From a virus, in the IMG/VR virus record IMGVR_UViG_3300045988_149506: a stretch of 62,842 nucleotides of DNA; one strand, given 5' to 3'. Every line of letters starts with the position of its first letter. Position 1 is the first letter of the stretch. Made by a program: the position numbers and the translations under genes. Of this stretch, positions 13,281-60,570 are shown piece after piece. Below the pieces are notes generated by a model that saw only the letters and a list, made by a program, of their open reading frames with translations, was not told where the DNA came from and made no database searches.

Positions 13281-13286
13281 AGCATA

Positions 13287-24892: not shown

Positions 24893-24900
24893 TATCTTTG
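24893..24900 (+). promoter_or_regulatory. -7 box TATCTTTG
   Basis: TAnnTTTG match 23 nt upstream of the ATG at 24924. Confidence 0.5.
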
Positions 24901-24923
24901 CAGAAAATTAAACATTCAAACTT

Positions 24924-25151: not shown

Positions 25152-25181
25152 GAACAGAAAAACTTGAATAGTAAATACAAG

Positions 25182-25212
25182 AAAAGGGAGTGTTGTTTTA
25201 GCACTCCCTTTT
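25182..25212. terminator. Bidirectional terminator hairpin
   Basis: AAAAGGGAGTG (25182-25192) pairs with CACTCCCTTTT (25202-25212), between convergent genes. Confidence 0.6.
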
Positions 25213-25228
25213 ACTATTCCAATACGGT

Positions 25229-25459: not shown

Positions 25460-26542
25460 TTATGCCTTTGCAATACTGATTGTATAACCCTTCTGCTGCA
25501 AGGTTGCTACTGCATCATCTGATACTGATGTGCGGTTTCCAGCGACTTGGATAGTCTTATACCAGATAGCATCTCCTGATGAAAATCCAACCTGACATTG
25601 TGCTTGATCTTGCAGCATCTTGTCAATGTTGTTAAGTGTAGCATTTCCTTCAATGGCAATAATTTTGGCAGAAGAGGAACGAGTGCTCCATGTGAATACT
25701 GAACCTTTATTATTTTGGAATGAAGCAAATCGGCATACAGAAGGAAGAGATGCAAGGTCGCCAGTCAGCTTACTGTACTTAAAGGACATTTCAGTACACT
25801 TTGATAGAGCACTTAATTCATCTATATTTCCTGTTAGTGAAGTGTATTCACCATACAAATTAAGTGTAGTCAATGCTGTCAAATTCTTCAAATTAGCAAT
25901 ATCACCACTTACTCGTGTATTAGCTAAGTTTAGATTAGTCAATGCTGTCAAATTCTTCAAATTAACAACATCACCACTTACTCGTGTATTAGCTAAGTTT
26001 AGATTAGTCAATGCTGTCAAATTCTTCAAATTAACAACATCACCACTTACTTGTGTACCATACAAATTAAGTGTAGCCAATGCTGTCAAATTCTTCAAAT
26101 TAGCAATATCACCACTTACTTGTGCACTAGGTAAGTTTAGAGTGATTAGAGCAGTGGAATATTTTAAATCATCAATATCAAAGAATTTGTTTTTAGCATA
26201 TACTGTGCCATTTGGCTGATTATTATAGTAAGCATTAATCCTAGTGATAGCATACTTTCCTAGCAAAGCAACTTCAACATCACTGGTAGAAGACACGAAG
26301 ATTCCATTAGTAGTGGAATCTATTGAGAGACTTTTGCCTTTGTTTTCCTGCAAGTTCTTGTCTGTAAAATATCCATCACCTATGATTTCCACTTTTGATG
26401 GTGTATTTACAAATAAGCCAAGCAACTGAGTTCCTTCCGTAGGAACATCAACTTTGTTAATCTTAAATCTCATTTCTCCAAGTCTTAAAATAGAATTATT
26501 ATTTACAGTTCCATTTAACTTTGTTACTAAACATTTTCCCAT
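25460..26542 (-). CDS. Leucine-rich-repeat protein (putative receptor-binding or tail-fibre protein)
   Basis: At least five 23-aa LRR units (LANTRVSGDVVNLKNLTALTNLN). It lies at the distal end of the tail-fibre gene block. Confidence 0.7.
   Translation of the reverse strand: MGKCLVTKLNGTVNNNSILRLGEMRFKINKVDVPTEGTQLLGLFVNTPSKVEIIGDGYFTDKNLQENKGKSLSIDSTTNGIFVSSTSDVEVALLGKYAITRINAYYNNQPNGTVYAKNKFFDIDDLKYSTALITLNLPSAQVSGDIANLKNLTALATLNLYGTQVSGDVVNLKNLTALTNLNLANTRVSGDVVNLKNLTALTNLNLANTRVSGDIANLKNLTALTTLNLYGEYTSLTGNIDELSALSKCTEMSFKYSKLTGDLASLPSVCRFASFQNNKGSVFTWSTRSSSAKIIAIEGNATLNNIDKMLQDQAQCQVGFSSGDAIWYKTIQVAGNRTSVSDDAVATLQQKGYTISIAKA
25850..26130 (-). repeat. 69-bp in-frame tandem repeats (LRR units), including two near-identical adjacent copies
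   Basis: 25921-25989 and 25990-26058 are identical except near the unit end. Flanking copies at about 25852-25920 and 26059-26127 are more diverged. Confidence 0.85.
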
Positions 26543-32367: not shown

Positions 32368-33939
32368 TTAAGCAGCCTCCTGAATCTGCTCATCGGTCAC
32401 ACCGTTCTCAGTGAAGGTAGGACGAGATACACGAGCATGGGCATCTGGGAAGGTAAGTACCCAACAGCTATACTCCTCCATTACCACACCTGCGGTATTG
32501 CGAATCAGCAAGTCCTTGGCATTAAACTCATTTCGTGACCAAGTACCAAATACATACTTGTCGAGATAACGAGCATCCAAACAGAAGGCTCTACCATCCA
32601 TGCCCCAACTATTGAAGGCATCGTGGCGATAAATGAGAATTTTAGTTCCCATGCTCTCAAACTTCTCGAAGTCGAGTTTCCATCCCTGGTAGTCCTTTTC
32701 GGTCTGTGTAATGATGCGCTTGTTAGAGCGGAGGTTGGCAAATGCCTGATAAATCAAGTTGTCCACGAAGAGCAACTTGGTACGGCTAGAGTTACCTGCA
32801 CCCTTCAACATAGCAGCAATAAATGAGGTCAGCTCCTTCTCACTAATCACATATTCATATACCTGCTTCTTCACTACCTCAGTACCGCCATCATCACCCT
32901 TTGGAACGGTCACATCTGCGGTTACAGGCACAAGAGTGCCATCGGCTTGTCTAAACATCTTTGGCTCCCAGTGTCCAATCTGCAAATCCTTACCAGCTGC
33001 CCAGAAGATGCCACCCATGGTATAAACAAGACCTACATCCTTGCCACCATTCGACATAGAGCGATAGCCAAACAGTCCGCTCAGCTCCTGACCTTGGCGC
33101 ATATCGTCCATAGCCATCTTCTCCTGACGTGTGAAGTCCCACTGCACCTGGGTCTTGCTCATACGGTCGATAAGAGACTCCTCCACCTGCATGATGAATC
33201 GCTGGCAATACTGGAAGCTCTTGTCTGGCATAGAGTAGTAGCTACCAGTCTCTACCTCTTTTTCACCAGCAGCTCGTCCCAGGCGCATTACGACAGTACC
33301 TGCCTCAATATCCTCAGGAATATCCCGGTTACCACGACTGGCATTCTTTTTACCATTCAGCGCATAGCATGTAGGGTTTCCATCGTTATCTACCTCTGTT
33401 ACACGCAGCTGCAAAGGAATCATCGTGCTTCGGTCAGTACCGTTGTCCTGATAGCCCAGGCAGCTTTTAATCATAATGATGTCACCAGTACCAAACACTG
33501 TAGCATTTTCCACCGTTAGCTTTACAGAGCCACCGTTTGTAGTTTTACTTACCTTCACTGCAAGTTTGGATTTGATTGGTCGCTGACCGATGGAATAGTA
33601 CTCAATGCGGTTACTGTCCACAGGAGTCATTCGCTTCGAGGCTCGAAGAATCTGGTCGATTGGACAACTCTCCAGCTTCATTTCCACCACGGTAGGGTTC
33701 ACATGAGCCACATAGTAGTCCCAGTTGTTCATCTTCTCCTGTTGCTCTTGGCTTCCACCCTGCCACTTTGGACCCGTGCCACCTACACCTGGTCCATCTG
33801 TTGGACCTGTAGGACCACCGCCACCTTCACCTGCTGGAATATTAGGAGGAGTTTCTGCCATAGCATAAGAGTTGCCACCACTCAGAATCATGACGAAAAT
33901 CGCCATCATGAATCCAAACCATTTCTTAAACTGTTTCAT
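32368..33939 (-). CDS. Putative major capsid protein (HK97-fold-like) with an unusual hydrophobic N-terminus
   Basis: The gene follows the scaffold gene, and its size and overall sequence pattern look MCP-like. The N-terminus reads MKQFKKWFGFMMAIFVMILSGGNSYAMA followed by a Gly/Pro-rich linker. Confidence 0.5.
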   Translation of the reverse strand: MKQFKKWFGFMMAIFVMILSGGNSYAMAETPPNIPAGEGGGGPTGPTDGPGVGGTGPKWQGGSQEQQEKMNNWDYYVAHVNPTVVEMKLESCPIDQILRASKRMTPVDSNRIEYYSIGQRPIKSKLAVKVSKTTNGGSVKLTVENATVFGTGDIIMIKSCLGYQDNGTDRSTMIPLQLRVTEVDNDGNPTCYALNGKKNASRGNRDIPEDIEAGTVVMRLGRAAGEKEVETGSYYSMPDKSFQYCQRFIMQVEESLIDRMSKTQVQWDFTRQEKMAMDDMRQGQELSGLFGYRSMSNGGKDVGLVYTMGGIFWAAGKDLQIGHWEPKMFRQADGTLVPVTADVTVPKGDDGGTEVVKKQVYEYVISEKELTSFIAAMLKGAGNSSRTKLLFVDNLIYQAFANLRSNKRIITQTEKDYQGWKLDFEKFESMGTKILIYRHDAFNSWGMDGRAFCLDARYLDKYVFGTWSRNEFNAKDLLIRNTAGVVMEEYSCWVLTFPDAHARVSRPTFTENGVTDEQIQEAA

Positions 33940-34808: not shown

Positions 34809-34834
34809 AAACGTTCGTTTTTAATATTTGTGTG

Positions 34835-34882
34835 CTAAATTAAGGAAAATTTCGCATTACTTTGTGATAAGTTCTGCATCTT
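34835..34882 (-). promoter_or_regulatory. Phage-specific promoter (minus strand), degenerate distal half: AAGATGCAGAACTT-ATCAC-N21-TAATTTAG
   Basis: Element at 34869-34882. The -7 box is the reverse complement of 34835-34842. The gap is 26 nt. Confidence 0.55.
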
Positions 34883-34902
34883 GGTGAATTAATTTTGTTG
34901 GC

Positions 34903-35860: not shown

Positions 35861-38044
35861 ATGCCAGTAGCAAAGTCTTTATTAAAGGTACGACCTCAGC
35901 AGCAGATTTCCGAAAAGAAGCTCAAAGAACTTCTAGAGGAAGATAAGAGAAGGCTCACAAGCCTCCTCGCTAGCTATCGTCCCATTACTGGAGAAAACGC
36001 CCCTGGTCTTCGTTTCGAGTGTGTCATTGAGGATTTCTTAAAAGGCAAGAAGCTTTGGCTTCCGGTAGAAATGTTGAAGGAAAAGAAGTTCTGCGCCATC
36101 ATCAAGTGCGGTTCCATCCAAGCCTTCTGCGAGAAGTATATGGCAGACCTGGATCAAGAAAAGGCACGCGATGCAGTATTCCGCTATCTCATCCGTCTCC
36201 GCTGCAAGCACGATTTCTATTTCTTCGCCTACGCCTATGCCCGAATCAAGAACAAGGATGGTGGCGATGATATACCTTTTCTTCTTCGCAATGCCCAGAT
36301 TAAGTTAGCCAAGGTCTTCGAGCAGTTGCGCCTTCATAGTCAGTACCGCTATATCCGTGTCATTCTCTTGAAGTGTCGCCAATGGGGTGGTTCTACCCTC
36401 ACCGACATCTACATGGCATGGCTGCAAATCTTCTGGAAGACCAACTGGAACAGCAACATCGTGGGTCACCAGTCTTCTTCTGCTACCCAGGTGTTCGATA
36501 TGTACGAGAAACTTATCAACGCCATCCCTACATGGCTCTTCTACGACATCGGGCAACCATTCAAACCTGATACTCGCAAGTTGAAGACTTCTGGCACCAT
36601 TCAGAACATCAAGTACCTCATCCCTCGTTCCTGCAAGATTCAGACTGGTTCGGCTCGTAACCCTGAGTCCTGTCGTTCCGGTGATGCTGCCCTCGCACAT
36701 ATCACCGAGGAAGCCTTCTTCCCGAATACTACTGAGTGGACCCCGGCAAAGGTTATCAAGGCTGCTTCTTCATCCATCCAGCCAGACCCTCTTACCTTCA
36801 TTGTCCGTGAGTCCACCCCTAATGGTCGTGAAAACGAGTTCCATGATGCTTGGGTAGCTGCCAACTCCGTGGATAAGGATGGCAAACCTCTCTCTGCTTA
36901 TACGCCTGTCTTCGTGGCATGGTTCGAGATTGAGAAATATGTACTCCCATTCGCCTCCGAGGATGAGCGTGCCGATTTCATCATCTGGCTGTGGAAGAAT
37001 CGCAATGACGAGCAAGGTCATGGAAAGTATTATTGGTGGCTCTACGAGTGCAAGGGCGCTTCCTTCGAGGGCATCCATTGGTACATCGAGAAGGCCAAGG
37101 AGTATGAGACTCTTGACGATATGCGTCAGGAGTTCCCTTCCGATGACGTGGAAGCCTTCCTGTTCTCTGGTACTACTGTCTTCGACCCTTACAAGTTGAA
37201 GGAGATGGAAGAGGACTGCAAGGGCATCGAGCCTATCATGGTGGGCGACATCGAGGGCGATTCCTACGATGCAGCCGACCCTGCTTGTATGAACAACATC
37301 CGTTTCGTGGAACGTTCCGGTGGACCTCTCAAAGTTTGGGCTGGACCCGACAACTCCGAGATTGTCAAGCATCGTTACGTTGTAGCCTGCGATATTGGTG
37401 GTTCACATAAAACCTCCGACTTCTCAGATATAGTAGTCTTCGACCGTTACGATGAAATCTACGGTGGCGTTCCCGAACTGGTAGCCGAATGGCATGGTCA
37501 CTGTGATGCCGACCAACTCGCCATGCGTTGCGCCCAGATTGCTCATTTCTTTAATGATGCCTTCCTGGTTATCGAGAACAATACCGCTTACTCTCGTATG
37601 AACAATACCGAGGGCAACCAGTCTGAGCTGTTCTTCCCTATCCTCATCCCTCTCTACAGCAACCTGTATAGTGCCTCCCAGTCCAAGCTGAAGAAGGTGA
37701 AGAATATCGAAATGAAATGGGGATTCAACACCAATAAGGCAACCAAGGTGGCAGTAGTGAAGACCATGGCACGCATCATCCGAGACGGTGGCTATATGGA
37801 GCGTGAGCTTGCAGCCATCGATGAATGCACCTACTTCCTCTACTACAAGCAAAACGACTGCTACGGTGCCATTGCTGGCAAGCATGATGACCGTGTTATG
37901 GCTAGAGCCATCGCCCTCTACGTAGAAAAGGACATGCCAGCCCCAGAAATCATCCCATTCCGTTCTAAGTCCGACATAGAGCGAGAACGCCTCCGCAACC
38001 GCCCTCCAGTAGTAGCCGAGTTAGCCGGAATAGGTGGCAGCTAA
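35861..38044 (+). CDS. terL: Terminase large subunit
   Basis: ATPase-like LLKCRQWGGSTL, nuclease-half YVVACDIGGSHKTSDFSDIVVFD and C-terminal GKHDDRVMARAIALY. Confidence 0.85.
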   Translation: MPVAKSLLKVRPQQQISEKKLKELLEEDKRRLTSLLASYRPITGENAPGLRFECVIEDFLKGKKLWLPVEMLKEKKFCAIIKCGSIQAFCEKYMADLDQEKARDAVFRYLIRLRCKHDFYFFAYAYARIKNKDGGDDIPFLLRNAQIKLAKVFEQLRLHSQYRYIRVILLKCRQWGGSTLTDIYMAWLQIFWKTNWNSNIVGHQSSSATQVFDMYEKLINAIPTWLFYDIGQPFKPDTRKLKTSGTIQNIKYLIPRSCKIQTGSARNPESCRSGDAALAHITEEAFFPNTTEWTPAKVIKAASSSIQPDPLTFIVRESTPNGRENEFHDAWVAANSVDKDGKPLSAYTPVFVAWFEIEKYVLPFASEDERADFIIWLWKNRNDEQGHGKYYWWLYECKGASFEGIHWYIEKAKEYETLDDMRQEFPSDDVEAFLFSGTTVFDPYKLKEMEEDCKGIEPIMVGDIEGDSYDAADPACMNNIRFVERSGGPLKVWAGPDNSEIVKHRYVVACDIGGSHKTSDFSDIVVFDRYDEIYGGVPELVAEWHGHCDADQLAMRCAQIAHFFNDAFLVIENNTAYSRMNNTEGNQSELFFPILIPLYSNLYSASQSKLKKVKNIEMKWGFNTNKATKVAVVKTMARIIRDGGYMERELAAIDECTYFLYYKQNDCYGAIAGKHDDRVMARAIALYVEKDMPAPEIIPFRSKSDIERERLRNRPPVVAELAGIGGS

Positions 38045-38608: not shown

Positions 38609-38623
38609 GCCCTCACAAAACAA

Positions 38624-38667
38624 AAGGAAGAGAAAGCCATCACGGTCTCCTCTTCCTTATCTTTTTA
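38624..38667 (+). terminator. Terminator hairpin with T-run between convergent genes
   Basis: AAGGAAGAG (38624-38632) pairs with CTCTTCCTT (38650-38658) and is followed by ATCTTTTT. Confidence 0.5.
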
Positions 38668-38742
38668 CCTTTAAACTAAAACCTAAAAACAATCTACTAA
38701 CTAAAAACTTAAGAGTTTATTATGATTCTAAGAACTTTCCTT

Positions 38743-40800
38743 TTATGTGCCCGATGATGGCAAAGTTGCCAAGTCATTTACACCATCGCTTGCATCTTTC
38801 AGGTGTGTTGCTGGCGTACCTGTTTGCTGTTGTCCAGCTCCTGCTGTAGGTATTTCGCCATTCGCTTGCTGTTGCGCTTGCATCGCCTGTAGTTTCTCTA
38901 GCTGTTCCTTGAAGTACTTCTTCATTCGGCTTGTACCAGGGAATTGTCCTACGGTCAGCATAGTATATGGGTCCATCTTACCGCTAACCATCATCTGCCA
39001 AGCCATATCGTTATTAGCATTTCTGATAAGTGGGCTGTAAGCGCCCAAGTCGATTGAAACATCAAGGTCCATATCCCTCATGGTCTCCGGATTGAAATGT
39101 GTCTCGAAATCGTCCCCTGTCAGTTTCACGCTGTCCGCTGAGGTACAAAATTCCTGAATGAGGTACAGCTTCTTCTTGGCGATTCTCACCTTGAAGTTAT
39201 TGAAGCTCTCCACAAAATCTTGTATTGTGGTAGAAGAACTTTCCCTTTCCAGTTGGTATTGCTTACCGCTAGTGTTGCGATGAACGCCTTGCAGAGCACC
39301 CTGCACGCCTGTACCCTCACTTGCCATAGTTTTGGCGAAGTTAACCATGAAGTCAACTCCTGCCGGAATACTCTTGTTGACCAAAGTCTGCGGTGGCTTG
39401 CCTCCGTTGGCTGAGTTCCACAAGATGATGCTATCCGTCTTCACATAGTTCGCTTGCATTTCATCGATACTTTGTTTTTCGCTCAGAGCATTCTCATCCA
39501 CAAGCATCGTACCCTTTGCACCATTGGCAACAATGAAGTTTATCATCATCATATAGTGGTTCAAGGTGCGTTGATTATTCTCAGCACGCATCGAAAAACT
39601 TCTTACCTCGCCATTCAGACAAGGGTATGCCACGAAGGTATATGGCATGATGGAAGTTCTGAAACCGTCTCTCAGAACATAGTAAGGCGATTCTCTCGCA
39701 TCCAGCAGATAGCCATTCGGAGTTAGGTATCTTCTGTACCAATAGGTCTCAACCTCATCCTTCATTTCGATGGTCTTAAGCTCTGATGGGTCCACATAAT
39801 AGATAGGCTCACCGTTCTCATCGAGCACAGGCAGACCGTTCTCGTCCTTCATGATGTTGGCTTCCTCTAGCTTCCGCTTCTTCTCCTCGTAGAAAGCTCG
39901 TTGGTCAGGAGAGGCATATCCGCTAGTTCCTGCATCCCAGTCATGCACCCAGATGGCTGGTCTAGTCTCCTTCGTCCATATCTCCAATACCCTGTACTTG
40001 CCGATTACCGAAGAATGGGTGAAATCGTCTATCCCTGCATACTGCGCTTCACCATTCGGGTGATAAGTCTGCTCAGGAGCGAAATGATGCTGTGTCTGTA
40101 GATATATCTCGCTCAGTTTGTCCACCTCAGCCTTGCTTCCATCGGTGAAGGTGGCGATTATCTCTCGCCAAGTCAAATCGTGAGCCTCAGCGATAAATTC
40201 TATGTCGCTCAGGTCATACTTGAAGAAAGGTGGCAACGCTATCTTAAAGATGTCCACCATGTAGTCAAAGATGCCATTCTTGCCATCTTTCCTGCCATAG
40301 TAGGTTTTCATGCCCACGAAGGCGAAGACACAGAAGGCATAAAACATTCTGGCATCTAGCTCCTGCCTGTCGTTCAAGTTGTCGTTCTGACGAAGGTATT
40401 CATTGAGGAAATTGATATAGTCCTCCTCGTTGGGGTCAACGGCACTGCAAGAGGCTGTACTGCGCTGCTGGCGCACAAGTCCTACGAGAGAAAGCAGCTT
40501 GTCGCCTATCACATCATATTCCAGTATAGGCATACCCTTCATTTCCATATACTGACGGATGCTTATCTTTCTGCCGTTCCACTCTATCAGTTCTTCCAGC
40601 TGTCTGCCCATCACGAAGTCCTGCGCTCGCTTCCACTTCTTTCTCAGCTCTGCGCCATCATAGAAGTATTGGCAAGCCCATTCTATCAGCCGAAGGTTGC
40701 TGTCCGTCTGGGCAAACCGCTCCCTGCTCACTCCCTCCAGGGAGTCAGGTCCAGGCTCGGCATAGTTCGAAATATCATTTATAACACGATTATCTGGCAT
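38743..40800 (-). CDS. Putative portal protein
   Basis: 685 aa, adjacent to the terminase, with a Gln-rich C-terminal tail. The call rests on size and position. Confidence 0.6.
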   Translation of the reverse strand: MPDNRVINDISNYAEPGPDSLEGVSRERFAQTDSNLRLIEWACQYFYDGAELRKKWKRAQDFVMGRQLEELIEWNGRKISIRQYMEMKGMPILEYDVIGDKLLSLVGLVRQQRSTASCSAVDPNEEDYINFLNEYLRQNDNLNDRQELDARMFYAFCVFAFVGMKTYYGRKDGKNGIFDYMVDIFKIALPPFFKYDLSDIEFIAEAHDLTWREIIATFTDGSKAEVDKLSEIYLQTQHHFAPEQTYHPNGEAQYAGIDDFTHSSVIGKYRVLEIWTKETRPAIWVHDWDAGTSGYASPDQRAFYEEKKRKLEEANIMKDENGLPVLDENGEPIYYVDPSELKTIEMKDEVETYWYRRYLTPNGYLLDARESPYYVLRDGFRTSIMPYTFVAYPCLNGEVRSFSMRAENNQRTLNHYMMMINFIVANGAKGTMLVDENALSEKQSIDEMQANYVKTDSIILWNSANGGKPPQTLVNKSIPAGVDFMVNFAKTMASEGTGVQGALQGVHRNTSGKQYQLERESSSTTIQDFVESFNNFKVRIAKKKLYLIQEFCTSADSVKLTGDDFETHFNPETMRDMDLDVSIDLGAYSPLIRNANNDMAWQMMVSGKMDPYTMLTVGQFPGTSRMKKYFKEQLEKLQAMQAQQQANGEIPTAGAGQQQTGTPATHLKDASDGVNDLATLPSSGT

Positions 40801-40817: not shown

Positions 40818-40899
40818 CAAAAATACCGCCTTTTTCTCACTTCTTAGTGATAAGTTGCGCAACTTAACATTACTTTCTCATATTTTCCCCTTATTTTTG
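40818..40899. promoter_or_regulatory. Bidirectional phage-specific promoter centred on the perfect palindrome AAGTTGCGCAACTT
   Basis: Palindrome at 40852-40865. The minus -7 box TATTTTTG is the reverse complement of 40818-40825, and the plus -7 box TATTTTTG is at 40892-40899. Both are exactly 26 nt from the palindrome. Confidence 0.65.
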
Positions 40900-40930
40900 T
40901 TCCGAATTTCATTTAAAAACGTTTTTAAGT

Positions 40931-41401
40931 ATGAGTAAATCAATAAATGTTCACGAAGCCTGTATCATCACCAAGGATGATAAAGGCAACCTCTCCCTGG
41001 TAGGCAAGGCAAAAGAAGCCCTCACCACCTTGAAGAAGAATAAGGTTTCCGTCTGCATTCTTCTCTGTGACAACAAGAAGGAGGATGTAGAAAAGTTCCT
41101 TAACGATAATAACGTGCCTTTCGCCTCTCTCTCCACCAAGCAGGAGACCGATAAGGATGGCAACACCGTGCATGTTGACCCACCAAAGGCAGATGTCACC
41201 ATCATGCCAAGTTCCAAGGTCATCACTCTCCGAGACGATTGGCAGTGGTGTCTAGACGATATTGCCCACCGTCTTTGGGGCGAGAAAAAGAAAGAAGCAC
41301 CCAAGAGTGAACAGCAGAGCATGGATGAAGCCATGAAGCGTTACATCGATTGGGCGAAGCCAAAGAAGGCAGAAGACAACGGACCCACTCAGCTAGGTTA
41401 A
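40931..41401 (+). CDS. Hypothetical protein
   Basis: 156-aa ORF divergent from the portal gene. Confidence 0.6.
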   Translation: MSKSINVHEACIITKDDKGNLSLVGKAKEALTTLKKNKVSVCILLCDNKKEDVEKFLNDNNVPFASLSTKQETDKDGNTVHVDPPKADVTIMPSSKVITLRDDWQWCLDDIAHRLWGEKKKEAPKSEQQSMDEAMKRYIDWAKPKKAEDNGPTQLG

Positions 41402-41480: not shown

Positions 41481-41520
41481 AAAAGGGACTCGCTGTGAAG
41501 CAAGTCCCTTTTCTTTTTCT
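41481..41520. terminator. Bidirectional terminator hairpin
   Basis: AAAAGGGACT (41481-41490) pairs with AGTCCCTTTT (41503-41512) and is followed by CTTTTTCT. Confidence 0.6.
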
Positions 41521-41559
41521 GAGTATCGAGTAAGCCCTCGTAGCTTTTATCATGCCGGG

Positions 41560-44500
41560 CTACTCCATTCCATTCAATGTTTTCAGCAGCTCCTTTCTGG
41601 TCTTGCGAATCTCCACCATTTTGGCGGCATCGTTCTGACCATCCATTTGCTTCTTGGCTTTGTTCATCTTCTTCTTGGCAGCAGAGATAGCCTTTCTAGC
41701 TGCAAACAGTCGCTTGTTGGTCTTGCTGTTCTTGAAGGCGTTAGCCTTCGCCTTATCCACATCCTTCAAACGCTGATACTCATCGTAGGTTTCCATCGTT
41801 CCGTTCCATACAGCCTGTATTCTCCAGTCCTCGGTCACATCCTCCGATTTCGCCTTCATCAAGTACTTGTTTTCAGCCTTTTCCATCTCCTTCAAGTCTT
41901 CATCACCGTTCAGATAGCCCTGCACCATGTCCAGAGCCTCCTTCTGGGTGAAAGCCTTGTACTCACTCTGCGAGAGGAATTTCTTCATCTTCTGGCGCAT
42001 CTTCTTCTTTTCGGTGATACTCTTAGCCACATCGAAGCGTTCGCTAGCCACCTGTAGAGAGGTAACACCATCTTGCATTTCAGATGTCTCCAACGCCTTC
42101 ACGCTACCGATGGCTGCTTTTATCTGCTCCTCTGGGGCAATGCCATTGCGCTCACAGCTCTGGTAGGTCATTACCACGCCTTCCATGTCACCGCTCAGGA
42201 TGAAGTCCTTGAAGTAGCTCTGAGCCTTCCAAGGAGAGAAGCCCTTTGAGGATGGGAAGAAGAAATCCACTGCCTTAAACTCCTTGTTCTCTTGGCTCGG
42301 TATCAAGAAAGGTGCCCAGTAGAGCGCATCCTTGTAGAGCAGACCGATGGTCTTGCCATACTTTCTTTGTATCTCTTGGTCGGCATGGCTGGCTTGGAAA
42401 TCGCTCAGATAGTTTATATCGTCCAAGGTCATTCTCACCATCGGGTTCGCCTTACCTATCATTCGCTGCACCATAGGGCCAGGGAACTCTAGTTCACCCT
42501 TATGGTTGAAGAGATATTCAGGCACCTCTCGGAACTGCTTACCATGTCGGATATACATTTCCGTTCCGTCCGCATATCTGCCCATAAAGATTTTGCTCTG
42601 TTGTCCTAGGCTGTTTCCTCTCATCAAGTAGTCATACCACATCATGCCATCAGGATAAGCCAGTTCGTAAGGGCTACGGTAGTTAGGGTTGGTCTTCCTC
42701 AACTCCTCAGCCTTCTTGCGTTCCTTCTCCTCGTCCAGGGCACGGAAGGCAGCATTGATGCCATTAGCAATAGCCTCATAGAACAACATGAAGCCCAAGC
42801 CGTAGCAGAGAAGCGAAGAAATCTGTCTAGCCCTTCTGCCCTCATCTTCTGGAGTAAGTTTCTTATGATAAAGCTTCTTGTAATACTCCTTGAAGTTCTC
42901 AAAGGTCGCCTCATTCCAGACAGAGCCATATCCTGTAAGAGCCAAGAAGTGGCGAGTAGTGGAGGCATTCCAGTCTGGCGAAAGAAGAACTCGTCCGGCA
43001 TAGCGCAAGGTTCGATGGCTGGCACCAAGCACATCCCAGTGCTGACCGCCAAACATATCGTTCACAAACTGACCGTCTTCATCCAAAGCCCGGCTCAGTT
43101 CCTCCTCAGTCCATCCCTTCTTCTTGGCACGCTCCTTGGTCTTGTCTGCCCTCATCCGGTAGGTAGCAAGTTTCAGTCCGTCATGAAGGAAATCCCACAA
43201 GGCTCTATCCATACCCTTGTTGATGAGCGAAAGCATCTGCGAAGCCACCTTCAAAGGCATAGTAGCCAAAGCCACCGTTCCGGAAATTCCATTTCCGTCC
43301 TTCAACTTCTCCTGCACCTTCATCATTGCATCGCGCATATTGTCGAACATGTTCTGCACATCCGCTGCTGCATAGTCGTTGGTCGCTCCAAACTTCACCA
43401 AGTGGGTTGCTGCCTCTTGGAAGTCCTGCGGATTGGCAAAGCATGGCAACTGATGATTCTTCATCGTGTCGGCAAAGATGTACTTCATAAAGTTGGCAAG
43501 AGCCTTCTTGGGTCCATACTCAACCATGTTCTGCACCATATACACCTCGGTCAGTGCTCCTGCATGGAATCCACTGAAGCCAAGCTCCAACTTCTTCATG
43601 CTCGATGCAGTTGTATCGAAGAACTTCCAGAAAGGAGTTGACTGATAGGTATCGAATACAACTCCGAATCTATCTCCTGCACTTGCCTCCGAGTAGAGCA
43701 CCTTATCCTTGCCAGTGATTGGGTTCTTCACTTTCATCTGCTTAGGCGATACATTATATACCCATACAGGACCCACACCCGGAATCTCGAAGTATTTGTA
43801 TTGCTCCAAGTTGAAAGGTGCAACCGAAGAAAGCAGTGGGTCGGAAGAAATTATCTCTCCGTCCTCGTTGCGCTCTATTACGTTCAGTCCGCTCACCTCT
43901 TGGAGCATCGTCTTGTTAGCCCAAGCCTCGATGTTGCTTCTGCTGTAGTAAGCCATCATCTTAGTGATGTCCGTGGTCTTAGGCACAAGTCCTACCTCCA
44001 AGCCTTCCATGATGGTGTTAATCTGGCGTGGCTTCTCGTTCGGGCTTTTGGTTCGCTGTCTGTTCTCCACATACATGGCATAGGCATTCTTATCAGACTT
44101 CTCCTTATCCCAAAGGTGATTTACATAGTCCACGGTGAAACCAGTGTCTGCCTTCAAGGTGTTGTTGTCCTTCAACCAGTCGAAGGTATAGTTATACCAG
44201 TCTCTGATGGAATCCAACACACTCTTCATCGGCTCGCTCAGGTTCTTGTAGTCCACACCGTAAGGAGTGATACGCTTCAAGATGATAGGCAAAACATTCT
44301 TATTCAAGATGTCCGTACCATCGATAGGCACAAATCCAGGTTCTTTCTCATGGTTGCCATTGATGATGTCAGCCATCTTGCTAGCCACCTCGGATGCGCC
44401 CTTCATATCATCGAAGACTTCTACCTCTTTTCCATCCTTCAGCTCCGTGTGCTTTTTGGCAGTCACCTCGGCAAGTTGTGGGCGAAGCTCCTGAATAGCC

Positions 44501-47500
44501 TCAACATCGTTAGGAGTGATATGGATATGTCCCTCACCAAACACACCAGTGGAGTTCAGCTTGTAGGCGATTTCTCTGATGCGTCTAGGTGCCTCTATTA
44601 TATAAGGTATAGCCTCAGCTAGCTTTTCAGCCTTGTTTGGCTTGCCTTGGTAGTCGGAAAGCAACTTGTCGAAAGCACCGCTCTCAGCCATTTTCTCGAT
44701 GCTGTTTTTCACATCATTGATATAGATGGCATCGTCTGCGCTTGCCTCCTCCATGTTCTTTCTACGATGGATAACCGCATGTTTCACTGTTCTAGCAGCT
44801 CCCTCCTTGCTCACATCGGTACTAGTTACCTCTGCCAAGTCCTGCATCACTCGCTGCTCCAAGGCATCAGCCTCCGGATTGGTCTCGGCTGGGTATATCT
44901 TCCCTTCATACAAGTCAAGGTCGGCATTGTTCTGCTCGTTCAGTTCGTGTCTAGTCAGCCAGTCCTCGTACTTCTGCCTAGCCTCATCCTGCTTCTGCTT
45001 CTCAAACGAGAACATATCAGGCATCGGGTTTTCCTTGTCTGCCATGGCATCGTTCCACTTCTCCCATTCCTTGTAACGAGGGAAAAACTCCTCATCCGTC
45101 TCGCCTTCCTTGCGTTCCGGCTTAATCGGCATTTCGTCACCCTGCAGATGATGGCTTTCACGCCATTCCTTGTTAAGACGTTCCCATTCCTTCTTGCCCT
45201 CAACATCCTTGTCGAAGTCATAGAACATTGGTGGCTCGGGGTCTTCTGTGTCCTCTCGGGCAATCTTCCACTTTTCCCACTCTCTTTTACGTTTAATATA
45301 TGCGATTTCGCCCTCGCCCTTCTTTCGATGTGGCTTGCCCTTACCTGCACCATCAGATAGCGCATCCTTGATTTCGGCATTGCTAGCCTGTGTCATCATA
45401 GCCTCCTGCTGTGTCTTCGGCATATTGTCCCAAACGTGAAGAGCCTTACCAGCCTTCATCAGGTAATATCTCAAATCCTTATCATTGAGCAAACCAGGAA
45501 CACGGATGCCCAATTTCTTAAGCATCTTGATGAGATAATGCTTTATCTTAGTCCAAAGAGAAAAGTCCTCCGCTGTAGTCGGACCCTCCTCGGCAAGATG
45601 GGCGATATACTCCTGCGTGCCGATATTGATGCGGTCAGGATTGTTCCAACCTGGATCATACTGATAAGCGAAGTCGAGAATCTTGCCCCTCGTCTTCTTA
45701 TCTACAGACTTATATACGAAGTCCGCAAACTTTCTCACGCCCTGCTCACCACCAAGCAGCACTTCCATACCCTCATGTCCTATCTTCTCATGGAAGACGG
45801 TTCTCTGAGCCTCATCGGCATCAGCACAGTTAGGAAGGTACACATGCACTGTATGAGTGCTAGGGTCATACCAACCTCTTGCACCTTGCTCCACAGCTTC
45901 TTTGTACTCATCAGGCACTTCCGAAGCATTGGTGTAAGATGTAACCTCAGCACCACCCAATACGTTAGCAACGTTCTTCACCTTATCGGCAGAATTTTTC
46001 ATCTCCTGCGATTCAAAGGTGCGGATGGATGGCATCGACAATCGCAAAGGATTCTTGTGGTTCGGTATATAGGTATGCTGAATCATGGTGTCGAAGAAGT
46101 GCAAATCTCCGTTCTCATCCTTGATTACATTCCTTGGTTCGGCATCCCACAAGTCAAACTCGCCATTCGTCCAGCCCAAATCTACCTCATCAGCACTAAT
46201 CTGAATCATATCCAGCTTAAATCCATGGTCGGTCAGATACTGAGTGATTTCCTCTCTTGTTGGAGTTGTACCCTTCAAGTATGGTTGTTCCATTACAATA
46301 CAAGGGTCTCCCTTTTGATTGTAGGCGAAACCAAGAGGAGTATATTTGTCCTCTGGCATAAACTGGTTATGGGCATTGATGCGGTCTATGAACTCATTAA
46401 TGCGGAATAAGCTATCAGTCATGGTGAAATCATTGAGTTTGATAACTTTAGTATCATCATATTTGGCATGATACACAAAGTTCTCCTCACCATGACCAAT
46501 AGAATCACCCACTATTTTTTTGAGTTCTTCGTCTGGGATGAACGAAAGATTTTTCTTAGCTGCTCGAATGACATACCCAAGTACGGGTCCTCTATCCCAA
46601 GTGCCTTGTTGTTTCTCAGCTGTTGCTGTTTGATTTCTTCGAAAGTTATCGGCTGCTGCGCCCAACGTTTCATTAACTCTTCTTTGCGCCTGTGCTCGGC
46701 TTCCAATTCTTCTGGTGATAACATCTTTATTTGGATTTTTGTTCATACTATCACCATTTTCATCAGCAACATCTGTGCCATTGTCACCAAGAGAGAACTT
46801 CAAGATGCTTCGATACCCCTTTTCTCTATGATTCTTACCATACACCTTGGAATAATGCACACCATCATTCTCACCTCCTACGATTCTGCCTCTGTTATCG
46901 GTCTCAACAAACGGCACACCTCGCTTCTCCAACTCTTTTCTCAGACTTGGAGTAACCACATTCGAAGGCATAGTGATATTCTTGCCCTTGAACATATCAT
47001 TAACAATAACATCAGCCACCTCGCTATCAGGCACAATACGCACAGGCTTATCCCAACGAGAAAGCACCACTTTGCGTTTGCCTGTCAGCTGTCCTTGGAT
47101 GATACCAGCCTTCCACTCTACTTCACCCACGGCATCCTTGGCTTTATCAGCCTTGTAGCCACTGGTTAACTCGCTCTTTGGCACCTCAACCTCTACGGTT
47201 ACGATGTTAGGGCGATTCTGAGCCTCGCTAAACTGGTCATTCAGTGGAGTGCGAGAAGTATGAAGGTAAGGATTGTAAGCAGCCTTAAGCGATTTACCAT
47301 TACCCTTGTTTAGGGTAAACATACCCTTATCATCAGCAAGTTCTGGTCGCTCATCTGCCTGTTCCCACTTACCGAGTTCGATAGGTTCCACAAACTTGCC
47401 CTTCACCTTTGCAGCCATCGGTGGATAGAGTTTTCCATCATCACCTACCTGCATGGCACGATAAACCTTCACCGTGTCTTCCTTATCCAGCTTCTTGATG

Positions 47501-50500
47501 GTCTCTGGGTCTTTCACGATGCTATAGCTAGCATCGCTCCCATTCATCACGATTTGCTCATCACGGTTCACATCCTCAGTTTCAGATGCCAATGAATTTC
47601 TGCGCTCCTCGTCCGTCATACCCAAACGCTTCTCCACGTTACGAGCCTCAACCTCACCTGCCAACTTTCTATATTCTTGGTAAGAATCAAAGTCTGTACG
47701 TTGGAACCTATCCAAACGGAAACGCTTAATGGCATCATCCATACTTCTGTCTGCATAGCCACGTGCGAAGTAGTTGAATCCCTTAATTCGGGTTTCCTTG
47801 TCAGGAATGAACTCAGGCATATCCATGTCCTTATATTCCTGAATAAGGGCTTTCTCTACAGCAGATTGGTTATACTCACCACCCATTTCCTTGGCTTTCT
47901 CTTCCAATTCAAAGGCATAGGAACGTGCCTTCCATTCAACCTTAGCAGCATTGAAATCCCTCTCCACCTGCTCGGGTGTGCCACCATGCGCAAACCCCTC
48001 TTCACGCTGAATTACGTGCTGAATTTCATGATTCAGAATGCTATTCAGATACTTTAATTCATCCGCATGAATGGTAATAGTCTTTGTTTGTGGATTGTAT
48101 TCCCCATTTGAAGGCATGTCATTCATTACTGCATCAGTATGGATTTTAATATTTTTCAACTGAGGATAAGCCTCAAAAAGCTTTGGTGCATCCACAGCAT
48201 CTTCCAACTTACCATCAGTCCATAGCATATCCTCTTCGAAACGTTTAACGATATTTCCACCACCTACATCGATGGTGTCCTTTATCTTGGCATCAGGCAT
48301 TTCGTATCTCCACTTGCCATCCACGCCTTTCTCCCAACCTGTAGCCATCTTGATAACCTTGGCATCCTTCTTCTCCTCTTCCATCTGCTTAGCCACATCC
48401 AGGTTATCCATGCGGATAGTTTGCTCATCAGCCTTATCAGCCTCAGCAGCTCCCTTCTCTCCAGCAAACATGAAGCGAATATCGCTCTTGCGAGAATTGA
48501 AGCGCTTAGAAGGAGGAATAACGTCACCCTCATCATCATAGGTAACAAGGTCGTTCAACTTTCTATTATTCTTGGCATTCTTGTATTTATACTCCTTGCC
48601 ATCATCAAAGCCAAACTCGTTTGCGTCATTACCATCCCACCACAGTTGAGTAGCTGGAACTTCGTCTTCAATGATACGATATTTGCCTTCCAGTCGGTTC
48701 GTTCCGTGCATTTCGGCATATTTCTTAGAAGGAGTAACCCAGTCACCATTACGCAACTTTCCTTCCTTCACAGAAGTTGGAACTGCACGATAAACCTTTA
48801 CCTTAACATCCTTCTCGCCATTCTTAATGGCATCAATAGCCGTATTGATGGCTTTCACAGATTCCAATCCATGAGGAGTGTTCTGCGAATAACGCTCAGG
48901 GTGAGAGAAGTAATCATCCGGCTGAGGAGTGTACCCCAAAGCCATATCCTCCAGGTTTACATCTGAGCCACTGGATTCCCAATCGTCACGTCTCGCCTTG
49001 TCGCTTTCATATCCAGGGTTTCCCGGTGCAGCCCATGCACCTACGCCCTGATATGCGCTTTCGGTATCGTCATATCCCTTGCGTCTGGCAGCCTCATCAA
49101 GCATTTCCCTGGCTGTAGCATCATCACCCTTAGAAAGAGCATCCATATACTGCTTGTCAAGTTTATCTTCAGGAATCAAAGAAAGTTCCTCCAAGTGCTT
49201 TTTGCGCTTGGCTTCCTCTTCCTCTGCTCTCTTTCTAGCAGCTTCCATAGCATTACGCTCTGCTTCAACCTGCTTTCTTCGTTCCTCAATCATTGCATCA
49301 AGGTCACCAAAATTCACCTTCAAGGCTTCATTTATAGGTTTGGTGTACTTAACAACATCCTTAAATGAGAAAATGTTACCTTCATTTACCTGCATCAAGT
49401 GACGCTTAATATTGGCTCTGGCACGTGCAGCCTCAGCAGTAGAACCCTTCTTAACAGCATTGGCATACATTGCCACATCTGCCTCATCTACCCCAAATTG
49501 CTGAGATACAGCCTTAATTTTATCCTCCACAGATAAATTTCCACCATTTTCCTTGGTGATTTCAAAGGAATTGCGTATCTTTGCATCGCTATGAGGATTC
49601 AGGACGCTATCCTTTCCGCTTGGGTTATTTGCGGATGGAGTTAATGCCGAACCTTGATTCTCGCCCAAGGAATTAGAATCGCCTCTGAAACGATTCCATA
49701 GCACTTTTGATTCTGTCAATTCTTTCACAACTTTCGAAGGCTCTATTTGGTGTGCGCTAATTGCAACCTCATCTTCGCCCTGTTTCACTGTGATAGACTC
49801 ATAGTTAAGAATCTTTGTTCCATCAGCCTTCTTGAAAGATTTAATAAACAAATACTTTGTTTGGCGTTCTGCGCCTTCTTTAGGTGCAGACTTCTCCAAG
49901 ATAACATCAGGACGTTCCAAGGTAGGTTTCAACAAACCAAATCGTTTGATTCGGTCTTCTCTTCCAGCCTTCTTATATTGATTCTCACCCAGTTTGATAC
50001 TGCCAATAGGAGTAGAGACACGCCCATCTTTGCCAAATTCTTTCAGCCAATTCTCCTCCGTATGCTCCAAGACTCTCTCTTGTTCCGCATTATCTTCCAT
50101 TTGCTGGCGCAAGGAAATGGCATCGTCTTTGGTAAGGCGAGATTTCACATTACGTGGGTCCACTCCTTGCGCCAAATCTCTCAGCACAAGGTTACGAATA
50201 TCCTCCAAGGTCATTTTCTTGATGTCCTCAGGCTTCCACTTCGTAAATGTATCAAGAGTCCAATACCAGAACTTCTTCAACCAATCCTTCAATCGGTTGA
50301 TGATAGTAAGCTCTTTAGCAGTATCTAACGGATTCTCCTTAATGGCATCATTTGCCATCTGCTCCAGGATGGCAGCACCGTCCTCGCCAGTCAAACGAGC
50401 AAAAGCCTCATCGCAAATCTGCTCATCGCTCAGATGCTTGTAGTTAGGGTCCTCCTTCAAGTCGGCAAATAGCTGGGTCTGCATGATGAGTTTATCACCA

Positions 50501-53500
50501 TGCTCAATAAGCTCCGGATTCATGTTCTTGGCAGCAGTGCGCCACAAATGCTGATACTCATGGATAGGAGTATTAGGATTCAGATGCTCCTGATTCAGTA
50601 CAATCTCCTTGCCATCGGTATAGCCATACACCGTGCCCTTTCCCTTCGCAAACTTGTTATGGTCAACAATCTGCATATTCTCTGGCTTAAAGATAACATA
50701 GTTAGTGTCACCTTCCTCTGCACCACCAAAATTACGACCAGCCTTGTACTTGATGCCAGTGTAGCCTAAAGAAGAGAGGAATTTACTTGCAGCCTTATCG
50801 TCTTTATAGGTTGCATCATCGCTCTTCATCCTTATAGACAAAGAATCGTACAAATCTTTCCCATCAAGGAACTTGTATCTCTTATCCAACTCTGGGTCAA
50901 TAGGACGCTTACCTAGTTGCTCCAACTGTTTGTTTATTTTGTTCAGCAATCTTGCTCCAACCTTGGCATCCCAATTCAAGTAGTTCTTGCCATTATCATC
51001 AGGGATATTCACCTCATAGAGAGAAGTCTTAGGAGTTTCAACCGACAAATCTAAGTCAAGCAGTTTCTGCATTACATCAATCTGCTTTTTATAGAAATCA
51101 TTGTTATCTTCCTTGTATATCTCTTGATTTTCTTTTATGGAGTTCTTTAGCTTTTGTTTAGCCTTATCTACCCCCATTCTATCAACATTCATAAGGAAGT
51201 TGTCTGCCTTAGAAACTCCATCCATGCCAACAATATCACTAAGAGTTGCCGACATGTGCCGCCAATCCAGCTTTTCCCCATTATAGACAAAATACTTATC
51301 TTTTCTACCGCTCTCAGCATAGTATTTTCCTATTTCAGGAGAAGAGGTTACATATCCTCCCCATCCAAAGCTCTGTGTACCTTCCCCCTCTCCCATGTGG
51401 CCAAAGTCAAACTCCGTGAAGTCAGCACCGCTACCATGATAAGTACGCAAGAATCTCACTCCAGGCTGTACGATAGCCTTCAACTGTCTGTCCAAATCCT
51501 TATATTTCGCAAACAAGGAATCAAGCTTATCTTGATATTTTTCAAAGGATTTATTCCTGCAATCATTCCAAACATCATCAGGAATATCGTTTTCAGAAGC
51601 CAGTCCATGCTCATCCATGTACTCCTTCATCAACTGATTTTGATACTTCACACGTTCCTGCCCGGTTGAATTATAAGCATCCTCAGTCTCCTTAATCTGC
51701 TTTTTCAACTCATTCTTCTTACTGGTCTGTTCATCAATCTTATAAGGGTCAAACTCCGAAGGGAAAGAGCCAGTAAGCCCTGCTACATTGTCCTCAAAGC
51801 TCTTGTCGAGATTGAACACCTTGTAGTTTCCCCACATCAGCCTATTCAGGTAGGTACGTTCCTTTCTTGCCAGCTCCTGCTTCTGGTAGTACTCAGGCAT
51901 CTTATTCGGATTGCTCATATCCACCACGGCATACTGCGCCCATTTGTTTGGTCGCAACTCCTTGGCAAAGTTATAAGCATTCTCGGCAGCCTGCTTCTCC
52001 TCCGGAGTCTTGATTTTAAATCTCATCTCAGGATGATTCAGCAACATGGCAAGATTCAGATTATCCTGAGCCTCAGCCACCTTCTCCATCTCCTCGTTGC
52101 TTATCACCTTCACAGGTATTCCAGCCTTCTTAAGCATAGCAGAAACGGCATCAAAAGCCACCTTCTGCGCCTCCGTCATTTCAGATGGCTTCACCTCCTT
52201 TACATCGCGGTCAAACTTCGTCTGTTCCTTCTGTACAATGGCATAGTCAGCAAATGGCTTAGTCTTGCGGTCAGAAGCCTCTAACCACTTATCGAAGGTA
52301 GCCTTAGGCACAGCAGTAACCTTACCAAGTCCCTTCCAGTCCTTGGAATAGTTGGCAAGATAAGCCTCTGTAGCAGCCTCCTCAGAAGGATAGCCAAACA
52401 TCACCTTATGCTCGCCAAACTCACCAGTCTCTGGGTTCACCTGGTCAACAACATAAACGTTACCATCAAAAGAATCAAGGTCAGCAGCATCATTGATGAA
52501 CATATCGATATGGTCACCATCCACGCCAATCTTGCCCAAAATATAGCCATAAGTGTCGTGCATGGTCACGCTCCAAGGCTTGCCCTGCTCGTCCTTACCG
52601 CTACGTGTTGTACCCTTCGGTGTCTCTACAGTAAAGTCATAGCCACCGAAGGACAAATGTCCCTTCTTATAGTTACCTGCCTTCTTCTGAGCCTCAGAAG
52701 GGTTAGGCTCAGTCTCGGCAATGGCATTCTTTAAACGTTCTCCGAAGGATGCTTCTTGCGGTAGATGTGGAGTTCTATCAGCTGAGCCTTCGCCAGATGC
52801 CAAGCTGCTAATCTCTTGTCTCCCTTCGCCTGTGCTATTATGTAACGCTCCAGTCTCGGTCTCAGCAGATGCTTCTCTGCTACCACCTTCTTGGCGATTG
52901 CGATTTCCTTCATCAACTCCTCTCCGTGAAGAGTCGCTACCCAGGCTACTGCCTCCTCCATATCCTTCTTCATTGCTTCTGTCATCATAATCTGCTAATT
53001 CTGGTAAAATTGATTTGACATATTGTTTGTACTCTCGTTCACGATTCTCAATCTCCATCATGCGGTCATATTCCATACCAGCAATATGGTTAAGTTCGTT
53101 TTCTGACGGCAAAGGTACAGAATTATCTTCAAGATAAGCATAATAATCTGGATTTTCTGCCTGTCTTTCGATAATTTCACGCTCTTTCTGTGCCTCATAA
53201 TACTCTTCCTCGCTTGAAAGTTCCTCCTCTGCTGCAGCAATTCGGTTCATAAGTGCCACATTACGCATTTCCTTCACATTGTCGTAGGTCTTGAACATAT
53301 CCAGCAAGGTGTTTCTCACATCTTGGTCAGAATATCCCATATCCTGCAAGTTGATAGGAAGGTCATTGTACACTCTCACGGCAAAATCGTTAACAGACAT
53401 ACCAGTGCCTTTCTTGGCAATAAGATAATTGAACTTATTAGAATCATATCCCTTGCCAATACCAACCTTGAAATTACTCTTGCCCAACTCATATTGAAGA

Positions 53501-60542: not shown

Positions 60543-60570
60543 AAAATTCGAATTTAATGTTTAAACAGTG

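Follow-up and report, generated by a model that had tools for sequence, protein, structure and literature searches.

A conserved, lineage-specific dyad at a fixed distance from Bacteroidota -7 boxes marks a class of predicted late promoters in a temperate phage of Segatella copri

The viral record IMGVR_UViG_3300045988_149506, analysed over its whole length of 62,842 nucleotides and called the window below, is a temperate, podovirus-like phage of ~63 kb with 44.8% G+C. At five loci it carries one compact element, in which the 19-mer AAGTTGCGCAACTTATCAC or a close variant is followed by a 21-nt spacer and a -7 box of the Bacteroidota type (TAnnTTWG), directly ahead of blocks of predicted late genes. 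An earlier reading of the sequence (the original prediction) had described the element as a 14-bp palindrome, AAGTTGCGCAACTT, with ATCAC attached, and had placed the five copies correctly: a search of the window for TTATCAC-N21-TAnnTTWG returns exactly these sites, with 0 mismatches at each, where 0.19 would be expected.

Site 1 (12864-12911, plus strand) consists of AAGTTGCGCAAGTTATCAC at 12864-12882, the spacer and the -7 box TAACTTAG at 12904-12911, and precedes the ATG at 12945; its palindrome abuts the stop codon of the DUF4494 gene (12335-12865), with no terminator between them. The other four sites read on the minus strand with the same 21-nt spacer. Site 2 (20781-20828) has the exact 19-mer at 20810-20828 and the box TAAATTTG at 20781-20788, and serves a holin-like gene with its ATG at 20748, while site 3 (34835-34882) combines AAGATGCAGAACTTATCAC, the distal half of which is degenerate, with TAATTTAG at 34835-34842 and serves a scaffold-like gene with its ATG at 34808. 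At site 4 (40818-40865) the exact 19-mer at 40847-40865 and TATTTTTG at 40818-40825 lead to the portal ATG at 40800; at site 5 (60571-60618) the exact 19-mer at 60600-60618 and TACTTTAG at 60571-60578 lead to the ATG at 60542, which opens an operon of a 167-aa gene, a 433-aa gene and the gene for a 5717-aa polyvalent protein. The last two sites also face the other way, on the plus strand: the site-4 palindrome lies 26 nt from a second TATTTTTG at 40892-40899 (reverse arm 40852-40899), ahead of the ATG at 40931 of a 156-aa protein, and the site-5 palindrome lies 26 nt from TATATTTG at 60645-60652 (reverse arm 60605-60652), ahead of the ATG at 60693 of a 127-aa basic protein. Both additional boxes are thus where they had been claimed to be, giving seven arrangements of identical spacing. 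From the -7 box to the start codon of the first gene of the block there are 17-33 nt, and 31 and 40 nt for the two reverse arms.

By count, AAGTTGCGCAACTTATCAC-N21-TAnnTTWG occurs five times in the window against 0.01-0.19 expected. The 14-bp palindrome is exact at 20815, 40852 and 60605, has one mismatch at 12864 and three at 34869 (the degenerate copy already noted in the original prediction), and allowing up to 3 mismatches it matches 10 times versus 2.87 expected; the 19-mer at the same tolerance matches 7 times versus 0.01 expected, a count that 0 of 100 shuffles equalled. Seen from the boxes, the window has 22 intergenic copies of TAnnTT[TA]G, and 7 of them are preceded by the palindrome at a distance of exactly 26 nt. 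A weight matrix derived from 27 distinct motif variants sets the five sites at 23.5-30.7 bits (27.6 for site 1, 23.5 for site 3 and 30.7 for each of sites 2, 4 and 5), cleanly apart from the rest of the window, where the next-best matches are reverse readings of the palindromes or noise at no more than 12 bits. The same scan finds no copy at the early operon, the lysogeny module, the 24741-20947 operon or the terminase operon.

The exact 19-mer is found in more than 118 IMG/VR stretches and is in every one followed by N21 and a box, but that sample was chosen by the motif, so relatives were also fetched through their proteins (the portal, a 973-aa protein and the giant polyvalent protein), with portals 65-99% and the other proteins 45-99% identical to those of the window. 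These protein-fetched relatives retain the element at all five equivalent positions, with the 21-nt spacing constant and the spacer sequences diverging freely, a conservation on which the original prediction had staked itself. Portal relatives at 89-99% identity hardly differ in the palindrome, ATCAC or either box and differ more in the spacer; at site 4 the palindrome and both boxes are near-invariant across 56 distinct upstream sequences, and the site-5 motif is present in 22 of 22 distinct upstream sequences at loci fetched through the giant protein. Site 1 in relatives L225-L228 (973-aa protein 67-82% identical) keeps AAGTTGCGCAA[GC]TTATCAC and the 21 nt across four different spacers, and site 2 is conserved in L225-L227, with weaker variants in L228 (AGATTCCGCTATTTATCAA, same spacing), L003 and L406. 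Equivalents of site 3 in two other lineages deviate in other ways and keep the same spacing.

The spacing itself is the most exacting feature. Over the window and all fetched loci, a -7-like box stands at exactly 21 nt in 107 of 118 distinct contexts of a strong 19-mer and at 20 or 22 nt in none, the remaining contexts being chance matches in unrelated DNA or the box variant TAATTTCG. Across 120 distinct contexts, a motif-selected sample whose values are descriptive only, the 19-mer and the box have mean pairwise identities of 0.89 and 0.81, the spacer has 0.46 and the flanks have 0.38-0.42. In a sister lineage (portal ~65% identical; L209 and IMGVR_UViG_3300045988_174751), every one of sites 1-5 belongs to the ATTTATCA type, position 12 being T where the window has C or G; four of these sites were read in one genome and site 5 in a close relative. 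L228 contains both site types, with variants at positions 3, 12 and 19 co-occurring, and the variants seem to travel with the downstream gene module; they are therefore better regarded as tolerated variation than as a demonstrable switch of specificity.

Two further observations concern site 1. The spacer at 12883-12903 holds a 9-bp inverted repeat, CACTTCTGT-TCCGC-ACAGAAGTG, which is shared by the window and L227 and absent from the other spacer variants. A partial second copy of the core (TCTTGCGCAATTT) lies ~30 nt upstream of site 1 in L225, L226, L228, L003 and L085, which have a longer intergenic region, and is absent from the window; such a copy may allow cooperative binding.

The distribution of the exact 19-mer also points to the host. 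Across 185,579 species genomes it was found on the chromosome of S. copri G8 (NZ_CP146523), which harbours a close relative of this phage, and in S. copri metagenome-assembled genomes, always within a homologous prophage, and on three phage-homologous contigs from two bins without the S. copri label; the only unrelated match, in Pontibacter, lacks both the -7 box and any homology and is put down to chance. Because the matches in S. copri sit inside homologous prophages, the host is taken to be Segatella (Prevotella) copri, a member of the Bacteroidota. No near-identical annotated phage was present among GenBank phages, the closest isolated relatives being the Bacteroides temperate phages BF1-TP2, BS-TP4 and BKO1-TP3 (PQ571263, PQ571277 and PQ571269), with portals 26-30% identical. 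A literature search turned up no described S. copri prophage of this kind and no paper containing the palindrome sequence, DUF4494 or BF1-TP2.

Comparison of the variants shows that ATCAC is not the separate element it had been taken for. The portal site of the sister lineage, TTGATAAATTGTACAATTTATCAA, is a perfect 24-bp palindrome with TATTTTTG 21 nt past each end, and L211 (portal 80% identical) has a perfect 20-mer, GATAAGTTGCGCAACTTATC, with a box on either side; this makes ATCAC the outer portion of the half-site nearer the promoter, and the full element is a dyad of 20-24 bp whose half-sites, (TT)GATAARTTGY and RCAAYTTATC(AA), meet at the axis. The consensus of the 27 variants is RAGTTGCGCAAYTTATCAM; T5 and T14-A15-T16-C17 never vary, and conservation is stronger in the proximal half than in the distal one. 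The outer TTATCA arm is present on both sides only where promoters run both ways, and the sister lineage carries a full TTATCAA arm on the reverse side of site 4. Boxes on the reverse side follow the same pattern: at sites 4 and 5, which have a divergent gene, all 24 and all 12 distinct contexts, respectively, show one at 26 nt, and at sites 1-3, which have no such gene, 0 of 35 contexts do.

Primary-sigma promoters of Bacteroidota are of the -33/-7 type, with TTTG at -33 and TAnnTTTG at -7 (PMC7366714), the latter box occupying positions -12 to -5 (PMC9723704). In the phage, TAnnTT[TA]G is present in all seven arrangements and the box is retained in relatives; none of the seven has TTTG at the right distance (-33), and (T)TATCAC or its equivalent stands there instead. 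Counting back from a box at -12 to -5, the spacer would span -33 to -13, ATCAC -38 to -34 and the 14-bp palindrome -52 to -39. The resulting 5' leaders, predicted at 13-29 nt, would fit the distribution of 5' untranslated regions in Bacteroides, which has its mode at 23 nt (PMC7366714).

The genes behind the sites fit a dedicated late regulon, as originally proposed. Site 1 leads the block 12945-17389, site 2 the lysis block 20748-17530 (holin-like protein and endolysin, 20748-19743), site 3 the scaffold, capsid and tail block 34808-25229 (with an SU10-type capsid protein at 32368-33939), site 4 the gene of the P22-type portal (38743-40800) and site 5 the block 60542-41560; the reverse arms are predicted to drive 40931-41401 and 60693-61076. 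The last gene of the site-1 operon (14468-17389) encodes the 973-aa protein, which was considered as a possible phage RNA polymerase and set aside: it has no DxDGD-type motif and its homologue lies within the structural core of the distant relative BF1-TP2, so it is probably structural. The site-5 block ends in the 5717-aa polyvalent protein, a single gene (41560-58713, minus strand) with InPase, Kinase-PolyVal, LPD23 and PBECR2 domains; relatives reach up to 5910 aa with ART-PolyVal and DNA_methylase domains added, and the protein is probably injected along with the DNA.

Hairpins with T-runs close the units of sites 2, 3, 4 and 5 and the 40931-41401 unit. The site-2 unit, convergent with the site-1 unit, ends at 17403-17462 (minus strand, -31 kcal/mol) and the site-3 capsid-tail unit at 25166-25225 (minus strand, -19.5 kcal/mol). 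A two-way hairpin at 38609-38683 separates the end of the terminase operon (plus) from that of the portal gene (minus), and another at 41481-41543 (-20.5 and -23 kcal/mol) separates the end of the 40931-41401 gene (plus) from that of the giant gene (minus). Directly upstream of site 2, a hairpin with U6 at 20835-20881 (minus strand, -20.6 kcal/mol, z = -4.5) forms a terminator-like end of the 24741-20947 operon. The claim that the motif defines the transcription units of the phage thus holds for the late blocks, whereas the terminase, 24741-20947, early and lysogeny genes use other promoters.

Late leaders carry a further regularity. Immediately ahead of late-gene start codons, at 40913-40928, 60544-60555 and about 34812-34823, there are short A/T-rich dyads centred on CG: TTAAAAACGTTTTTAA before the ATG at 40931, AAATTCGAATTT before that at 60542 (minus strand) and AAACGAACGTTT before that at 34808 (minus strand). 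The site-5 leader reads AAAATTCGAATTTT or AAAATCGATTTT in relatives, so a symmetric indel preserves the dyad. These dyads are too weak for RNA hairpins.

Base-pair-exact spacing, use from two sides, a sigma-A box without TTTG and a dyad arm at -33 together form what is best supported as the signature of a dimeric activator that recruits RNA polymerase. At a probability of roughly 0.65, the host RNA polymerase, carrying its primary sigma factor, reads all five elements as late promoters that depend on an activator, a dimeric protein bound to the dyad. A dimeric DNA-binding protein, most likely encoded by the phage and made earlier in the cycle, would bind the full dyad; its proximal arm, TTATCA, would take the place of the -33 element (at about -40 to -35), and the bound protein would recruit the polymerase to, or position it at, the TAnnTTTG -7 box that follows after exactly 21 bp. 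The regulon would then comprise the virion, ejection-protein and lysis operons. Since the site is symmetric, one dimer could serve a promoter on each side at the portal and giant-gene loci. We infer the transcription starts, activation through binding, a phage-encoded factor and, from dyad symmetry, its dimeric state; that the effect is activation rather than repression is taken from geometry alone. Where the original prediction offered a dimeric activator or an alternative sigma factor, dyad symmetry favours the former, and the latter is opposed by the host-type sigma-A -7 box and by the lack of a detectable sigma or RNA polymerase domain.

Several points weigh against activation by a phage factor. 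The terminase operon, normally late, has no such site. Its -7-like box, TAATTTTG (34890-34897), which is kept in L107 and L209, lies 5 nt before the ATG at 34903 and 7 nt from the site-3 palindrome, which would place that palindrome at about -33 to -20 of the putative terminase promoter, where it looks more like an occluding operator. In many Bacteroidota promoters the -33 element is weak or cannot be detected (PMC7366714), and a missing TTTG is therefore no proof of activator dependence; the predicted dyad centre at about -45.5 likewise depends on the position of the sigma-A box in other Bacteroidota. The motif shows no clean co-evolution with a regulator, given the mixture of variants at positions 3, 12 and 19 within L228, and the only clear helix-turn-helix protein of the late region (HTH_17) is shared with unrelated phages in which the 20 kb compared for each has no copy of the motif. 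The layout at site 3 further suggests that the terminase transcript may be leaderless or nearly so, from a predicted promoter overlapped by the late dyad, an overlap that could permit opposite regulation of the terminase and capsid operons.

That position at site 3 also speaks for a repressor operator, with a dimeric phage protein sitting on the dyad in the lysogen or in early infection and keeping the late promoters shut until it is removed. The proximal arm lies over the stretch that sigma region 4 would normally contact, and the phage is temperate, with an integrase (61200-62666) and a cI-like HTH_3 protein (2453-2788). Operator positions normally vary, however, and a bp-invariant, two-sided spacing in more than 100 distinct contexts is typical of recruitment; the dyad centre, moreover, lies upstream of the core promoter, and the motif is missing from the control region of the early and lysogeny genes at 2789-2933. 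Repression is accordingly given a small chance. A slightly larger but still small chance goes to a host factor: the dyad would be bound by an S. copri transcription factor, perhaps one that answers to stress or growth phase, and the phage sites would have evolved to tap into it. Searches yielded no assignable phage regulator, as this would lead one to expect, and the different motif of a distant relative on another host genus suits host- and phage-specific factors equally well. Against it, the exact 19-mer occurs in S. copri genomes only within the prophage (exact matches alone were searched, not degenerate sites), and a set of lineage-specific small basic proteins tracks the motif-bearing genomes and is absent from the motif-less relative. 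With the 19-mer confined to phage copies and BF1-TP2 lacking it, a lineage-specific factor is favoured, whether phage- or host-encoded.

Alternatively, GCAAYTTATCAM could serve as a -35-type element for a phage sigma factor, for a sigma-appropriating factor of the T4 MotA/AsiA kind, or for a host extracytoplasmic function (ECF) sigma factor. The proximal half, with its invariant TTATC and AA at positions 10-11, is indeed the better conserved one, and GCAACTT resembles GGAACTT, the -35 element of ECF sigmas. Yet ECF promoters join an AAC-type -35 to a CGT-type -10 at 16-17 nt, and here AACTT lies 26 nt from a TAnnTTTG box, which is a sigma-A -7 box rather than the CGT box of ECF promoters (PMC9723704). 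No sigma, AsiA or MotA domain is present in any open reading frame scanned, and symmetry counts against a monomeric reader, which would not need it: the 14-bp palindrome is perfect at the one-directional site 2 and near-perfect at site 1, and the sister lineage has a perfect 24-bp version. This alternative is thus improbable. Least probable is a role that is not primarily transcriptional, be it as a linker for module recombination, a packaging or replication site, or a single-stranded hairpin (an N4-type promoter or a terminator). The sequence is palindromic, its variants move with the downstream module, and the mosaic genomes are broken at motif junctions; but the register to -7 boxes and start codons is fixed and two-sided at divergent genes, which recombination or packaging would not call for, and there are five dispersed copies rather than one. 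As a single strand the palindrome folds weakly (about -3 kcal/mol; -0.2 to -4.3 kcal/mol over the sites, z from -0.1 to +0.7, no U-run), and the window has no Rfam match at gathering score and no tRNA, which excludes hairpin promoters, terminators and known RNA elements. Resemblances by eye to a DnaA box, an IHF site and a Hin hix half-site have the wrong register or orientation. A methylation site, suggested by the central GCGC and a phage C5 methylase (6057-7457), was discarded too, GCGC being replaced in the sister lineage by GTAC, GCAC or GTGC and not depleted (99 observed versus 95 expected).

For an activator of the late promoters, attention turns to which phage protein might read the dyad. 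No domain of the sigma-70, RNA polymerase, Mor/C, Ogr, AsiA or MotA type was found in any open reading frame scanned, in keeping with the earlier remark that no obvious sigma factor is encoded, and Pfam Mor gave no match at E <= 0.01 in any of these frames nor at E <= 10 in ten small proteins. The HTH_17 protein (23832-24209), one of the three regulators originally nominated, has the only clear DNA-binding domain outside the lysogeny module. Homologues 58-60% identical, in the same cassette of a 168-aa protein and HTH_17, occur in unrelated phages of ~41-45 kb and on a ~125 kb contig; these phages bear diversity-generating retroelements, and the 20 kb examined in each holds neither the late motif nor a common dyad upstream of -7 boxes. 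The corresponding operon of the sister lineage is 84-97% identical to that of the window, and with both site types mixed in L228 no change of specificity could be assigned to it. A different palindrome is tied to this cassette: the 13-bp AAAGTTAAACTTT at 24848-24860, in the divergent promoter region upstream (24742-24923), is conserved in relatives with variable flanks, and GTTTAAC also lies upstream of the cassette in L389 and L391. This palindrome probably serves the HTH_17 protein as its operator and is a likelier target for it than the late dyad, and the HTH_17 protein was dropped as the leading candidate for the late regulator.

The other two nominees, a putative HTH protein at 4514-4813 and a putative AbrB-like protein at 14026-14430, could not be confirmed. 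They show suggestive sequence patterns by eye and no family match, and no DNA-binding domain was detected through Pfam, PHROGs, NCBIfam, PDB sequence search or structure prediction; alignment-free prediction gave a predicted local distance difference test (pLDDT) score of 40 for 14026-14430, which is unusable, and of 67 for 4514-4813, with no PDB fold match at E < 0.01. PDB sequence searches with five candidates gave no significant match, and the Cys-rich 111-aa protein (12945-13280) matched no family. Among other candidates, the 168-aa protein (24235-24741) has the look of a membrane protein, DUF4494 occurs as well in BF1-TP2, which has no motif, and the 60693-61076 protein, at first sight exceptionally conserved, proved to be 71-100% identical in loci not selected by motif, like its neighbours.

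Every motif-bearing genome examined has a set of small, basic, lineage-specific proteins that BF1-TP2 lacks. The dyad might, tentatively, be read by one such small protein without a recognisable domain (e.g. from 12945-14430 or the early operon), which would represent a regulator family not yet described and would activate two divergent sigma-A promoters as a dimer. It may be speculated that the site-1 operon proteins (12945-14430) are made first by read-through from the early operon and then boost their own promoter; read-through is conceivable because no terminator separates the palindrome from the DUF4494 stop codon that it adjoins.

Elsewhere in the genome, the terminase large subunit is encoded at 35861-38044. 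The leucine-rich-repeat tail protein gene (25460-26542) contains four tandem ~69-bp repeats at 25881-26107. In L225-L228 the early operons encode Sequestin and Tad2-like (anti-defence) domains in places taken up by other small genes in the window, and from these gene contents the region upstream of DUF4494 is predicted to be a variable anti-defence island.

The phage lineage is abundant in human gut metagenomes, with a portal cluster of thousands of member sequences and more than 100 IMG/VR contigs bearing the motif, and its host is a key gut species for which genetic tools are nearly lacking and no phage regulation has been characterised. For uncultivated relatives the motif offers a map of the late transcription units and a marker for late-gene annotation, and a compact, factor-dependent and possibly two-way promoter could become an expression tool in Segatella/Prevotella. 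To our knowledge, no late-gene activator system has so far been defined for phages of Bacteroidota. If the proposal is true, a dimer of a new family would switch two divergent promoters in a phylum with an unusual primary sigma factor and promoter architecture.

Among known systems, the nearest parallel is phage Mu, in several late promoters of which a 16-bp dyad centred at -43.5, the binding site of a Mor or C dimer, takes the place of the -35 element (PMC4390567, PMC2582627). The arrangement predicted here shares with the Mu promoters (Pm, Plys, PI, PP and Pmom) the host primary-sigma polymerase, a recognisable downstream element with no -35/-33 element and a site common to several dispersed late operons; its dyad would also lie in the -40s, over the -35 region. 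The dyad here differs in its length of 20-24 bp and in its predicted centre of -45.5 (~2 bp further upstream, with starts unmapped), in its Bacteroidota -7 core promoter and in its two sites serving divergent promoters; there is no sequence similarity between the sites, and no Mor/C-family protein is detectable in this phage. By this analogy, the element appears to work like the Mor/C system without being a member of the Mor/C family.

The Ogr, Delta and B proteins of P2, P4 and 186 offer a second comparison: small zinc-finger activators that switch on late operons through a conserved dyad at a fixed position (TGT-N12-ACA, centred near -55) upstream of promoters without a -35 element. Several late operons and a fixed dyad are common to both systems; sequence and position differ, and no Ogr-like protein was found. 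At class II promoters, CRP binds as a symmetric dimer to a site centred at -41.5, at the upstream promoter element, and a single site can serve both directions. The resemblance lies in a symmetric site abutting or overlapping the upstream element and in divergent use, the difference in CRP being a global host regulator with an effector, whereas the regulon here is specific to a phage lineage. T4 middle promoters similarly keep the host downstream element and replace the upstream one with a phage element, but the MotA box lacks symmetry, has its centre at -30 and is recognised by a monomer together with a sigma-remodelling factor, whereas the present site is a dyad and neither AsiA nor MotA has an encoded homologue. 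Ordinary sigma-A promoters of Bacteroidota share the -7 consensus and the distance to start codons (PMC7366714, PMC9723704), and differ in having TTTG at -33 where the phage has the TTATCA arm of its dyad.

Of the Bacteroides phages, BF1-TP2 was compared for gene order and motif. It shares the gene order, homologous capsid, terminase, portal, 973-aa and DUF4494 proteins, a giant gene of its own and a methylase, but has no copy of the motif and none of the small candidate regulators. At equivalent divergent junctions, about 39150-39210 (scaffold/terminase) and 60992-61090 (gp70/gp71), it carries a repeat of its own, CCCCATAAC[GA]ATAAA, inverted at the gp70/gp71 junction around two back-to-back -7 boxes, which may be the analogous late control element of that lineage. 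Set beside all of these systems, the element of the S. copri phage is a real, strongly conserved and lineage-specific class of late promoters, familiar in its most likely mechanism and new in its sequence, host phylum and two-way use.

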